Assembly (NCBI GenBank): GCA_044892525.1
Contig: CM097888.1
Location: forward strand, 34,472,001-34,536,000
Direction of reading: 5' to 3'
Source: Schmidtea polychroa
Taxonomy: Eukaryota
DNA length: 64,000 nucleotides
The first letter of the stretch is position 1. Each line of letters opens with the position of its first letter. The notes below the pieces were generated by a model. It worked only from the letters and a program-made list of their open reading frames with translations, searched no databases and was not told the origin of the DNA. Positions 12,363-57,230 of the stretch are shown here, piece by piece. Position numbers and translations under genes: made by a program.

Positions 12363-12523
12363 TAAAACAATAAAATGATAATTTAAGCCTTTTGCTGCAA
12401 ATAATGTATTAAATGAAAGAATTTTCGACTATACGATAGTCCTTGTCAATCTTGTAGTCGAAAATTCTTTCATTTAATACATTATTTGCAGCAAAAGGCT
12501 TAAATTATCATTTTATTGTTTTA
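12363..12523. repeat. Foldback element, family C (69-bp inverted arms, 23-nt spacer)
   Basis: Arms 12363-12431 and 12455-12523 are reverse complements. Single-arm relatives occur at 29992-30076 and 55490-55597. Confidence 0.9.
12415..12454 (-). ncRNA. Possible minimal hammerhead ribozyme, U3-A8 variant
   Basis: Minus strand reads AAGA-TTGACAA-G-GACTAT-cgt-ATAGTC-GAAA-AT-TC-TTT. It has a 6-bp stem II, GAAA, an AATT palindrome and a TC site. Stems I and III are very short, and the other family copies lack GAAA. Confidence 0.4.
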
Positions 12524-13134
12524 AATAATAAATGCTGCTACCAAGCAATCATCATTTTATACTATTATGATATCATTATAATATAATAGCTACTATTATT
12601 CATTTTTTTTTCGTTTTACTAGACAAACTTTTAAATAATAAAGTCTAATTAACTTTCATTCAAAAATATGGCATAAAACAAAATCTTAGTTAAAATTTTA
12701 TTCAAAATTTATGAAACATTTTTCGGTGAATATTTTAAATTCCAAGCACGGAAGTTCATGAAATGAAAGAAGTATGTGTAACATGTCCATTGTACGTCAA
12801 CATTTTTAATTATTAAAAATAAGTTACTGCTTTGTTTCAATTAACAATTGATAGAGACTGGTTAAGACAATACAAAATGAAAATTTCAATAAAAATAAGT
12901 GGCACCTTGTTAAAATAAAAATTCAATAGTAGTTCGCAAATAGATTAAAGAACATGTCGAGACAAAATTGAAAATTGTACGACCGAGGCTTGTTTATTAA
13001 TTTTATAAAAATAAAAGCGTCATTTCTGAGTAATTTAAATTTATAAATAATGTAGAAGTTGAATAAAATTATTGTAATTAGACAAACATAACAGAAACAT
13101 ATTTATGTTATTAACAATATTCACAATAATACTA

Positions 13135-13161
13135 ATATTACTATTATTAATAATACTGATA

Positions 13162-13198
<37 letters not shown>

Positions 13199-13210
13199 TA
13201 ATTATTATTA
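13135..13210. repeat. (AAT/GAT)n-rich microsatellite abutting the 3' LTR
   Basis: Visible ATA/ATG trinucleotide runs; these produce the spurious poly-Ile ORFs. Confidence 0.85.
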
Positions 13211-13416
13211 GCCACAGAGCTACGGGTATTAATAGAATCCATAACAAAAACACGTTTATTATAAAAACACAAATATTATTAAAACAAATTATAACGTTAA
13301 TTTGTTTGAGGAGTTTCTAAAAATAATAATTAATGTATAAGTAAGGATTTCAACATACAATCAAACATGCACAACATCATACCATTATTTAAATACAAAT
13401 TACAAAACGCCTCACA
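13206..13416 (-). repeat. 3' LTR (211 bp; TGTGAGGC...GGCTAATA on the minus strand)
   Basis: Direct repeat of 17603-17793; begins immediately after the PPT. Confidence 0.92.
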
Positions 13417-14635
13417 TCCCCCCCTTTTTGAAAACCTTTAACCACTCAATATTTCTCGTGACGGAACTTCCATTTCCCAATTTTATTTCATAACTTCGAT
13501 CATGAATCTTTTTAGTAATCACACCTGGACCCATGTATCTGTTATCACCTTTATTTCGAACATTTAATTTGATCAATACGCAATCTCCAATTTGAAATTC
13601 GCGATTTGTCGCCTGATTGATTTTTTCTTCTTCCACAATCTCTGAGAACCATTCACTATAAATCTTTTTCCCAAACACCATTTCAGCTGGAGTCTTCCTA
13701 ATTGTTTTTTGAAAAGTTGAATTCAACATAAACTGAACTTCGGGAAGAATATCTACCCATGATTTATGTCTTTTATCTTTGAGTGTTATCTGTATTGCAT
13801 CTCTAATTGTACGGAATTGTCTCTCAATCTGTCCATTTGCTGAGTGATGATATGGACTTGAATAATTAATTTCAATATTGTGGAATTCTGCAAAATCTTT
13901 CATTAGCTTTGATTCAAATGATTTACCTCTGTCACAGTTTATTATCCTTGGTGCTCCAAACTTCATTATCCACTCTTCTTTCAGTAATCTTACCACTGTT
14001 TTTTCATCTTGCGATTTCACTGCATGTAAAGAAATAAACTTACTATGATGATCTATAATCCCAAGAATATATCTTTCTCCTTTCATTGCAAGTTGTAATG
14101 GACCACAAAAATCTACATAGATTGTTTCAAATAATTTCGAATCACTTTTGCAAATTATTTCTTCTTTTGTTTTAGTTGTATCAACCTTTCTTTTCTGACA
14201 GTTTTCACAGGATTGTACAACATTACGAATAGATTGCTCCAAATCTTTCATATCAAAATCTTTTGATACATACATTTTTACTTTATTAGCACCCGCGTGA
14301 CAGAGCTTTTTATGATATTCTATGATGAATCCAGACTTGTTTTCTTCTGGAATCCAAATTTTATTATTATTTGTCATAATCACTCCGCTGACATATTTAA
14401 AAAATGTTTTATCTGGCATCAAACTAATATTTTCTTTTATATTTTCAATTTCTTTCGAGTTCTTTTGCCATATATTTTCAATATTATCAGTCATCAGTGT
14501 CAACAATCTTGTTTTTAATTTACCCATTTTTGGATTTTCATGAATCATTTGACATTGAACACATGTTTCACATTCTTTTCTAGATAAAGCGTCGGCATTA
14601 TTGTGGTTATCACCTTTTCTGTATTGAATCTCCAT
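13412..14635 (-). pseudogene. Gypsy pol C-terminal part (RH end, integrase), separated from RT-RH by a frameshift near 14680
   Basis: YRKGDNHNNADALSR, HKKLCHAG..CENC zinc-binding motif, YVDFCGP / CDRGKSF / GQIERQFRT catalytic core. The frame upstream of Met continues QFQTWINHLSGLD, out of frame with the RH ORF. Confidence 0.92.
13417..13429 (-). promoter_or_regulatory. Polypurine tract
   Basis: AAAAAGGGGGGGA directly before the TG start of the 3' LTR. Confidence 0.85.
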
Positions 14636-54354: not shown

Positions 54355-54510
54355 TATCACATAAATCCTTCCATCTCGAGTCAGTGAACACATCAAAAAC
54401 ATAAACCAGCAATCACCACAAACATTTGGGAAAAGTACATAAAGTAGCGGCATTCATTGAAAAAAATAATTTCAAGTGTTACAAGACGGCTTTAAAGACT
54501 TCTTTAAGCA
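54355..54510 (+). pseudogene. Penelope-like GIY-YIG endonuclease relic (copy 1)
   Basis: Clearly similar to 57035-57180; LPSRVSEHIKNIN resembles the GIY-YIG RxxEH motif. Confidence 0.5.
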
Positions 54511-55489
54511 ATTCCTTCTGAAAATTATATCAACTCTTACAGTTTATCAATTATTTTTTTACCAGTTTAGTTAAAATTCGCCTCGTGTGCAATGAATGCA
54601 CATGAATTTGGATATTAAATTACAAGGAAGTAGCTATTTGCAATTTATTTTTTACATTGCATTTTGAACACGGCAAAAAGTTCCATCTTTAAACAGAACA
54701 TAATGAAATTACGCTTATGTTAAAGACTTAGAAACCAATAACAACACAATTTCAAGAGGTAATTTTATATGGAATTGGAATAGAGGAAAAGTGAACTACA
54801 TTCAAACCCCTAAAATATTGTGACACATGTGTTCAATGTCAGACAATGCTCGAAGATCTCAATAAAGTGAGGGTGGAAACTGTAATGTTTTTTTTATTCC
54901 TCCCCCTCGTTGCGTTTTTTTGTTATGTGCACGTTTGCTGAAAACTTAGTTGAATGTTAAATCAATTCTCTATAATAATATTTGAAATATCTTATTATAT
55001 AGAAATAAAAATTGAAAATTAAGAATTGAATTAGAAAATTTATTATACAAATAACGGAAGAAAGACAAATATGATACCGATTACTATCCCTTGTTTTTTG
55101 TGGTGATAATTATTCTTTTTAATAAAGATTTTGTTAAAAGTTATTATTGTTGTTTTTATTATATTACATACACGAGTCAGTGGCGGATTTATAGGAGGGA
55201 GCGAAAGAAATTTCTTTATCGATTTTTACTTGGATTTTGCAGCCCTTTATAAAGGAAGTATGCAATGTCAACAAAAATGTTCAACTTTTAATTTAGATAT
55301 ACACTGCTGTAAATTAAATTTTGAAGTACCTGGTCAACTTTGAGTATCATTCTTCTACTGTCTTAATCTATGTAATGTAACTGTAAAATGAAGTAATATA
55401 TTGGTATCCCAATAGTCCGATTTAAAATACGCACCGCACAACTTTATTAAAATTCATATTACTCAATAGACCTAATTTACATCCGTTTT

Positions 55490-55597
55490 GACAAAGATTG
55501 ATCAAAGGACTATATTTGACTATCTTATAGTCAACAATTTTTTCATTAAATACATTATTTGCAGCAAAAGGCTTAAATTATCACTTTATTGTTTTAA
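55490..55597 (+). repeat. Single-arm, decayed copy of foldback family C
   Basis: GACTATCTTATAGTC hairpin followed by TACATTATTTGCAGCAAAAGGCTTAAATTATCA, as in the 12363 element. Confidence 0.8.
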
Positions 55598-56144
55598 ATA
55601 TCAGTTTATAATAAAAATATTATAAATTGTTGCTATAATCAATAATAATGAGTCAAAAGAAAAAAAAATAAACAAGTTTTACGATTTGTGGGCTTGCCAG
55701 CGGTTGCTACTAAAACCTAAAAATCGGCCCCCTTACTAGATTGTCTGGATCCAACCCTGACACGAGTAAGCATTCACATAAATACCTACACAAGTACCCC
55801 GATTGTCTCGATACACTTTTAAAGGTGACTCTGTCGTGCTTTTATAAATTACCACACTCACAAATTATTTATCGAACTTATTTGTTAATCAAAACAGGAG
55901 TAACGTTAATTATATATATTCTAATATCTTTAATGATATCCGAAGTTGTAAAGACTGCCAAAAGATAAAATAGATTAAAACACCCAACAAAGATACGGTA
56001 ATAAAACCGTATTATTTGAAACGATTCTTATAGACTTTTATGTTCCATTTAAAACAATAATTAATTGTAAGAAATATGTATTAAGATTATGAATTTGTTC
56101 ACCAGATATATTTTGTTGAGTGCAGTATCAACACAGGATGGAAG

Positions 56145-56516
56145 CAGTGCTCGAAGTGAGGCGGGATAGCCGGGATATTATCCCGGCATTGATTATGTAG
56201 GCGGAATTGCATCCCGGCACTTCATTTCATATAATCTATAAGTTTATCCCGGTACTTATTTCATTTTATAGGCACACAAATACTGCAATTAAGGTCACAC
56301 ATAGTACATCCATATATGTATGTATATATGTATTATTCTCTATTCTCTATTCAATTAAGAATTTCCCAAGCAGCAGTAATGGATAGGTAGGTATTTGTTG
56401 GACACCCCCCAAAGTTTTGCAACACCCCCAACCGAAAATTTCTGCATAAAAGCCTGGTATCCCGGGTGCCACAGCATGTCTATCCCGGCACATATTTTGT
56501 TCCACTTCGAGCACTG
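56145..56516. mobile_element. hAT-type MITE (372 bp)
   Basis: Perfect 14-bp TIRs CAGTGCTCGAAGTG / CACTTCGAGCACTG; 8-bp TSD GATGGAAG; subterminal ATCCCGG repeats. Confidence 0.92.
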
Positions 56517-56959
56517 GATGGAAGTACAACCGCAAATATTTTAAGAAATAATTGGATTTTACAATTTGGTGCACCAAAGACACACAGTACGACAGAGGGA
56601 AAACATTTGAATCCAACCTAATCAAATCACTCGTAGAGAAACACAAAATTAAAGTAGAATAATTGAGCTTATATCATTACTCAGCAAATAAAATAATTGA
56701 GAGACAATTGAAGAGAAGAAGAGACGACATTCAGATATCTTTGAAAGACAAGTGTATAAAAATTGACCAGAACTACTTCAAAATAGAGTTTTTTATTAGA
56801 TTCAGCTTGGCAGATTATGGTGGGGTTTATCCTGACCAAGATTGGGTTTGAAAAAATTATTTAGAAAATGGATAATTGGCCAAGGACGATAATGAATATA
56901 AAGAAAGACAAATATAAAATATTTTTTATCGTGACTGTCTTTGATCACTACTACTAAAT

Positions 56960-57230
56960 GCTTTTTGTTGTAAAAATACTGTTTATAAAATAACATGCCT
57001 ATGATATGACACAGCTAAGCATAACATACGGGAAATACATAAATCCTTCCTATACGAGGCAGTGAACACATTAAAAACATAAACCAGCAATAACCACAAA
57101 CATTTGGGAAAGGTACATAAAGAGCGCTATTCATTGACAACAATATTTCAAGTGTTACAAGACGGGTTTGAAACCTCATTTACCAGAAAGTAAGTTATCA
57201 CAAATAAGTTTAATATGAATAATGCCTTAA
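56960..57230 (+). pseudogene. Penelope-like GIY-YIG endonuclease relic (copy 2), cut by a piggyBac insertion
   Basis: KNTVYKITCL*..IRE(I)HKS / LPIRGSEHIKNIN resembles VYKIxC..YIGET..RxxEH; one stop and one frameshift. Confidence 0.55.

Follow-up and report, generated by a model that had tools for sequence, protein, structure and literature searches.

Hammerhead foldbacks in a 64-kb window of Schmidtea polychroa are probable insertion remnants of Penelope-like retroelements

Short elements whose inverted arms carry hammerhead ribozyme motifs raise a question: are they mobile families in their own right, or by-products left by another element? We addressed it in 64,000 nt of Schmidtea polychroa DNA (assembly GCA_044892525.1, contig CM097888.1, positions 34,472,001 to 34,536,000 of the forward strand). 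This stretch, called the window below, is about 28% GC, draft and gappy (11 gaps and 2008 N, leaving 62 kb without N). A preliminary description had proposed that it hosts non-autonomous, ribozyme-only foldback elements mobilised by Penelope machinery, and had suggested classing hammerheads genome-wide as solo, tandem or inverted. Within the window, this classing gave 10 hammerhead loci in five groups, four inverted (A1, B1, C1 and D1) and six solo (A2, A3, B2, B3, E1 and E2), with no head-to-tail tandem. The family labels A to E are those of the present analysis and may differ from the A-C used before. The loci are probably insertion remnants without open reading frames (ORFs), or short pseudo-long terminal repeats (pseudo-LTRs), of several Penelope-like element (PLE) lineages. 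They look like an already described type of PLE end and not like a new kind of mobile element.

The hammerhead motifs are real. A type-I hammerhead descriptor found nine loci, against a shuffle mean of 1.1 (maximum 4 in 200 shuffles), and the CUGA core alone gave six motifs where shuffles predict 0.055; one of the six, at 33206, is probably a chance occurrence. A scan with stricter geometry returned five zero-mismatch loci (0.017 in 60 shuffles), as well as a one-mismatch motif at 21883, in the left arm of D1. In an alignment of five motifs from families A, B and D, 97.7% of the stem cells were paired and five pairs carried changes on both sides, and none of 500 shuffles scored as high; this control is lenient, the aligned rows being related and the structure having been read from those rows. 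The core is intact in A1L, B1L, B1R, B2, C1L, C1R and E1 (L and R denote left and right arms), with one change in D1L. Searching with a model built from the five motifs gave 30 matches at E up to 5; they include B3, A2, E1 and the two C motifs, and most of the rest are noise. The hammerhead call rests on the descriptor scans with their shuffles and not on Rfam, which gave no ribozyme at E up to 5 in a whole-window search. A local Rfam search (451 nt) detected HH9 in both C1 arms (E 0.045 and 0.093, below the gathering score), while the local search of family B gave nothing; Rfam scored B1 against MIR396 and mir-2985.

The motifs have the features of minimal PLE hammerheads. An extra base between positions 9 and 10.1 is present in A, B, D and E and absent in C. 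The U3-A8 variant occurs in A and E, a short helix I and G10.1-C11.1 are also seen, and helix III is palindromic in seven of the eight aligned motifs. Cervera & de la Pena 2014 (PMC4209133) describe the same set for minimal hammerhead ribozymes of PLEs: an unpaired base after 9, short helix I, G10.1-C11.1, palindromic helix III and the U3-A8 variant. Most of their motifs are single, and some form opposite-strand pairs about 100-700 bp apart. Family C has instead a 6-bp helix I extended past a bulge and a 4-bp helix II.

In four of the five minimal motifs checked (B1L, B1R, B2 and D1L), A9, the extra base and G10.1 read ATG, and the cut lies 26 nt downstream. The B and D loci are in this respect like Anolis Poseidon, where the ORF opens at stem II and the cut falls 26 bp further on (Frangieh et al. 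2024, PMC11167929). From the stem-II ATG, family B keeps 10 codons without a tail (B1L) and 21 through a tail of ~32 nt (B1R), close to the Adineta Pen2a pseudo-LTR, which holds 12 ORF codons, or 22 when the 31-bp tail is counted (Arkhipova et al. 2013, PMC3846280). The B tail is common to B1R, B2 (as far as a gap allows) and B3 (p 0.0005-0.006) but not to B1L and B3 (p 0.07-0.10); it is weak in family A (p 0.02) and absent in family C. A 30-40-bp tail at one end, as well as an adjacent inverted 5'-truncated copy, has been described by Craig et al. 2021 (PMC8557442), and the tail has been explained by two internal priming sites (PMC11167929). We consider it likely that the pseudo-LTRs hold the hammerhead of the element and that those of B and D also include the opening codons of the ORF. 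Separately, several differences between the tails of B1R (25912-25944) and B3 (50951-50985) are synonymous in the stem-II ATG frame, too few for a test.

The three longest inverted repeats of the window (44228-44657, 25742-25927 and 12359-12527) belong to hammerhead families C, B and A, and D1 ranks tenth. The ribozyme strand reads outward at all four inverted loci. The earlier observation that sequence-unrelated families share this design was borne out, with no detectable similarity among A, B and C (p 0.61, 0.93 and 0.056); B and D are related in sequence. Two complete cores are found only in B1 and C1, the second arm of A1 and D1 beginning inside stem II. The spacers measure 0 (B1), 11 (A1), 170 (C1) and 534 nt (D1). 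Arm overlap at the junction, known from Adineta, is seen in B1 and A1 but in neither C1 nor D1. For PLEs, head-to-head joins showing overlap or palindromes have been reported, together with solo pseudo-LTRs and captured DNA (PMC3846280). No family has a second clear inverted copy in the window, and a common junction is therefore not demonstrable; a vestigial junction common to A1 and A3 was not significant (p 0.31-0.43). The asymmetric truncation of the arms claimed before holds for B1, whose outer ends are unequal, and not for C1.

Fixed-length target-site duplications were also as first described: neither an 8-bp nor a TTAA duplication was found at any of the four inverted loci, unlike the nearby hAT- and piggyBac-like elements. 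Exact 8-bp duplications border all four short control elements (8991-9132, 27948-28304, 50527-50782 and 55178-55759), and TTAA stands on both sides of the piggyBac-like element 57231-57995. At B1 and D1 we found no target duplication. A 6-bp repeat abuts C1 (P 0.016, with four loci tested), and A1 shows a 7-bp duplication only with ends picked after the fact.

The motifs, their orientation, the one-sided tail, the ATG/cut geometry and the coexistence of solo with inverted copies can be read directly in the window. They compare well with the pseudo-LTRs of endonuclease-bearing (EN+) PLEs (Penelope/Poseidon, the Schistosoma Cercyon minimal hammerheads, Adineta Pen2a, Anolis PAc), which share the minimal type-I core with the extra base, U3-A8, the palindromic helix III, head-to-head pairs, a one-sided tail of ~30 nt, mostly solo copies and AT-rich sites. 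The Penelope link is thus better supported than in the preliminary description, by the ATG/cut geometry, the one-sided tail and the overlapping inverted junction. Unlike these pseudo-LTRs, the loci have no ORF between their arms and no visible master element in the window. Stem II is 5-6 bp here versus 7-8, the arms are 55-130 nt versus about 180-220 bp in Adineta, and the local density (10 loci in 62 kb, in a window selected for density) is high compared with known PLEs.

For the mechanism we draw on published PLE work. A PLE reverse transcriptase (RT)-endonuclease would nick AT-rich DNA, and reverse transcription would be primed internally on the RNA, from either of two sites on the downstream side of the hammerhead, leaving ends with or without the ~30-nt tail. 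Synthesis would halt early, yielding a copy of the pseudo-LTR alone. A second copy may then be joined head-to-head, through self-priming or by a switch of template at a short palindrome or stretch of microhomology, placing both 3' ends and both ribozymes outward. The foldback would be the by-product of one insertion and not a replicating unit; family C may derive from a retrozyme-like non-autonomous RNA inserted by PLE machinery. Having at most one clear inverted copy per family, four differing junctions and mostly solo loci fits inversions made afresh at insertion, a behaviour published for PLEs.

Several points weigh against a PLE origin. All three B loci have a 5' limit in common, ~45 nt ahead of the core, and this would suit a defined non-autonomous unit as well. 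In AT-only sequence further out, B1L resembles B1R once more (p about 0.001), and the tail boundary is blurred. Taken by themselves, the open frames fall short of significance (P 0.19, 0.19 and 0.08) and, B and D being related, are not independent. Family A is without the ATG (AGG instead) and has an in-frame stop, while family C lacks both the extra base and the tail. Moreover, no master element was seen in the window, and no PLE RT or endonuclease Pfam family was found in 19 long ORFs or in 145 further segments. The latter are a chosen set: 137 come from the 393 unassigned stop-free segments of at least 40 aa, as do 2 of the pieces taken from the relic area, and ~250 short stop-free segments lie outside it. 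The intact Penelope ORF whose search had been proposed was thus not encountered in the scanned ORFs and segments. The window holds no linked RT and GIY-YIG ORF either; since only the window was searched, this lowers the probability of an autonomous element here and not that of a PLE derivation.

The preliminary description took the ORF-less foldback units for true families, copied whole as hairpins by PLE proteins in trans. The common 5' limit of the B loci can be read in this way, as can a faint AT-only inverted trace near that limit in B3 (P 0.02-0.04, uncorrected), the start of the second arm in stem II in both A1 and D1, and the loss of the ATG in family A; trans-mobilisation by pseudo-LTRs has also been published (PMC3846280). 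Replicating families are nevertheless not supported and we judge them unlikely, as each has one clear inverted copy, the four junctions differ, an opposite arm is lacking at P<0.05 in five of the six solo copies, and a transcript folded into a hairpin would make its recognition site and ribozyme inaccessible. We equally doubt that fixed-length ORF-less hammerhead units of ~110-130 nt, family C included, amplify as head-to-head hairpins with a conserved junction, as a MITE-like counterpart of tandem retrozymes (MITE, miniature inverted-repeat transposable element). No description of a replicating ORF-less hammerhead foldback family was found in the mostly open-access literature searched, and loci of this kind may appear in supplementary data to the 2014 and 2021 papers. 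For family C only, the chances are a little short of even that it is a non-LTR retrozyme monomer with a canonical type-I hammerhead, inserted with inversion. Its canonical stems, the lack of the extra base and the sub-threshold HH9 matches in both arms suggest this, and monomers and a PLE origin have been described for non-LTR retrozymes (Cervera & de la Pena 2020; Li et al. 2026 preprint; PMC7229834; bioRxiv 10.64898/2026.07.22.740005), which are non-coding, PLE-tied hammerhead repeats with common monomers and a canonical-type motif like that of C. They are defined, however, by head-to-tail tandems that release circular RNA; the head-to-head layout cannot free a monomer, and family C is a single locus with no tandem copy in the window. 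This possibility overlaps the derivation from PLE insertions and does not exclude it.

Palindromic DNA transposons of the MITE type, with an incidental hammerhead-like sequence, are largely refuted and very unlikely. Elements of hAT-like and piggyBac-like type abound in the window, with A3 lying within one of them, and hAT and piggyBac MITEs are likewise short and non-coding with inverted ends. Here, no 8-bp or TTAA duplication accompanies the four inverted loci, there are no short conserved terminal repeats, single arms stand alone and outnumber pairs, the outer ends of B1 are unequal, and the stems covary. We give still less weight to inversions produced by amplification or assembly chimeras: the assembly is a draft and B2 and A2 adjoin gaps, but the arms differ at 3/79, 4/77, 10/130 and 9/56 positions and the longest inversions fall specifically on the hammerhead families.

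Two GIY-YIG-like relics had been noted at ~54.4 and ~57.0 kb. Both (R1 and R2) are copies of one 138-bp repeat, 88% identical, and count once. They read RxxEH, then His residues and an FxVL-like stretch, with a YIG-like stretch in the neighbouring frame of R2. R2 has the highest score of the window for what we take to be the GIY-YIG motif, but 9 of 150 shuffles reach that score. A GIY motif with a Cys pair between GIY and YIG, the two cysteines reported for the PLE endonuclease (Craig et al. 2021, PMC8557442), had no match in six frames. Searches with this short, decayed query, which has low power, gave no homologue in a 5.8-billion set (three candidates, none at E up to 10), a 1.84-billion set, Pfam or PHROGs, and only one irrelevant match in PDB (E 1.6). 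The relics have no sequence in common with families A-D (lowest p 0.04 of 16 tests), start and stop at the same places, mid-domain, and are not followed by a hammerhead. That they represent PLE endonuclease debris is about as likely as not, and they do not count as evidence that the hammerhead families have a partner. R1, A3 and R2 were also considered as one decayed tandem PLE (2.7-kb spacing, same strand); this was rejected because A3 lies within an element with an 8-bp duplication, a Gypsy-like fragment stands between A3 and R2, and no sequence links them. Overall, the hammerheads, their outward orientation and the lack of MITE-type duplications stand, while the paired cores are limited to B1 and C1, six of the 10 loci are solo, and the GIY-YIG identity was not confirmed.

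It had also been suggested that the foldbacks could cut read-through transcripts in both directions or be a source of double-stranded RNA (dsRNA). In secondary-structure folding, which covers neither kinetics nor tertiary contacts, imposing the hammerhead fold carries a penalty of 61-70 kcal/mol for the complete B1 and C1 versus 8-10 for a single arm, and 23-26 for D1 and A1. The uninterrupted helices are 71-73 bp in A1, 38-55 in B1, 30-42 in C1 and 8-9 in D1. Folding thus predicts that the read-through hairpin buries the ribozymes. Bidirectional cutting appears unlikely, because an antisense copy is transcribed before each ribozyme and the motifs need a second sense copy as a dimer; PLE minimal hammerheads are described as weak cutters, dimer- or protein-dependent (PMC4209133, PMC11167929). 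A role as dsRNA source is plausible for three of the four inverted loci, if they are transcribed.

Table 1. Hammerhead loci and putative endonuclease relics in the window (positions counted from its first nucleotide).
Feature	Position	Strand	Description
A1 foldback	12347..12527		Arms 12359-12437 and 12449-12527, 76/79 identical, 11 nt apart; possible 18-25-nt tail on left arm; right arm without first half of core
A1 left-arm minimal hammerhead	12416..12452	-	U3-A8 core, 6-bp stem II, cut after 12419
A2, solo, family A	29988..30081	-	Both core boxes decayed; adjoins assembly gap
A3, solo, family A	55490..55626	+	Core decayed; within element 55178-55759 with 8-bp duplication
B1 spacer-less foldback	25758..25944		Centre is a 6-nt palindrome near 25834; left-arm homology stops 3 nt past cut site; ~32-nt tail on right arm
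B1 left hammerhead	25758..25796	-	Core 25793, ATG 25787, cut after 25761
B1 right hammerhead	25873..25911	+	Core 25876, ATG 25882, cut after 25908
B2, solo, family B	17933..18028	-	Intact core; 3' end enters assembly gap
B3, solo, family B	50871..50985	+	6-nt core deletion; tail present
C1 inverted	44228..44657		130-nt arms, 120/130 identical; 170-nt spacer with inner hairpin; 6-bp abutting direct repeat
C1 left canonical-type hammerhead	44273..44314	-	Core 44308, cut after 44279
C1 right canonical-type hammerhead	44571..44612	+	Core 44577, cut after 44606
D1 inverted pair	21771..22494		Older, B-related; 534-nt spacer; left-arm hammerhead on minus strand, core at 21883 with one change; right arm begins in stem II; not singled out in the preliminary description
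E1, solo	38300..38352	-	U3-A8 minimal hammerhead, short stem II; weaker call
E2, solo, E1 relative	29165..29216	-	Stem II broken
R1, 138-bp repeat copy	54359..54496	+	RxxEH-type reading; endonuclease identity unproven
R2, second repeat copy	57037..57172	+	88% identical to R1

A few further observations concern individual loci. Changes in the GAAA box and at the cut site are common to A2 (29993-30074) and A3 (55518-55594), hinting at a ribozyme-dead subfamily that may itself have been copied. A2 and a gap are bracketed by a 119-bp direct repeat (29647-29765 and 30113-30227, 102 identical), either an old duplication or a haplotype join. The C1 spacer contains a second, nested hairpin (44480-44545) made from a segment that has a further copy where the left arm ends on its inner side, which suggests repeated template switching. 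At the inner ends of the C1 arms lie splice-donor-like AG/GTAAG strings, at 44357 (+) and 44540 (-), two of the three in the window. Introns occur near the hammerhead in PLEs, but these strings sit on the strand opposite the ribozyme. The D1 spacer holds a Cys-rich fragment, presumably piggyBac-like. Finally, a decayed hammerhead-like motif at 8525-8563 (+) resembles D (model E 5e-4, alignment p 0.007); it has no inverted partner and was left out of the count of 10 loci.

The Pfam scan of long ORFs revealed a Gypsy-type element, hAT transposases, a lipase-like exon and a kinase ORF in the window. The Gypsy-type LTR element, at 13206-17793, is young (LTRs 100% identical across 191 bp), has gag, protease, RT-RNase H and integrase each in its own frame, and adjoins an (AAT)n tract. 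A seemingly intact hAT transposase frame of 842 codons was mapped to 41237-43765, with related fragments near 10.3, 34.3, 46.6 and 62.4-64 kb. The protein kinase frame (51830-52639, 269 codons) is uninterrupted and has a single relative at E up to 1e-15 (55% identity). Two further regions had no Pfam match: an element at 38662-40038, whose 74-nt inverted ends enclose what we take to be a Tc1/IS630-like fragment, and fragments at 60572-61376, presumably resembling the DNA polymerase region of a Polinton-type element.

The window provides a compact natural example of Penelope insertions reduced to their ends, and the match of family B extends the Anolis/Adineta geometry to another genome. Hammerhead foldbacks of this kind can be mis-filed as MITEs or miRNA precursors. 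If the foldbacks were true families after all, occurring roughly once every 6 kb, they would provide a large supply of hairpin RNA silencing its own ribozymes and possibly the parent Penelope elements, and junctions conserved genome-wide would make them a new non-autonomous form. If the density seen here holds, the genome would contain thousands of short inverted junctions, allowing a statistical test of the self-priming model of PLE inversion.

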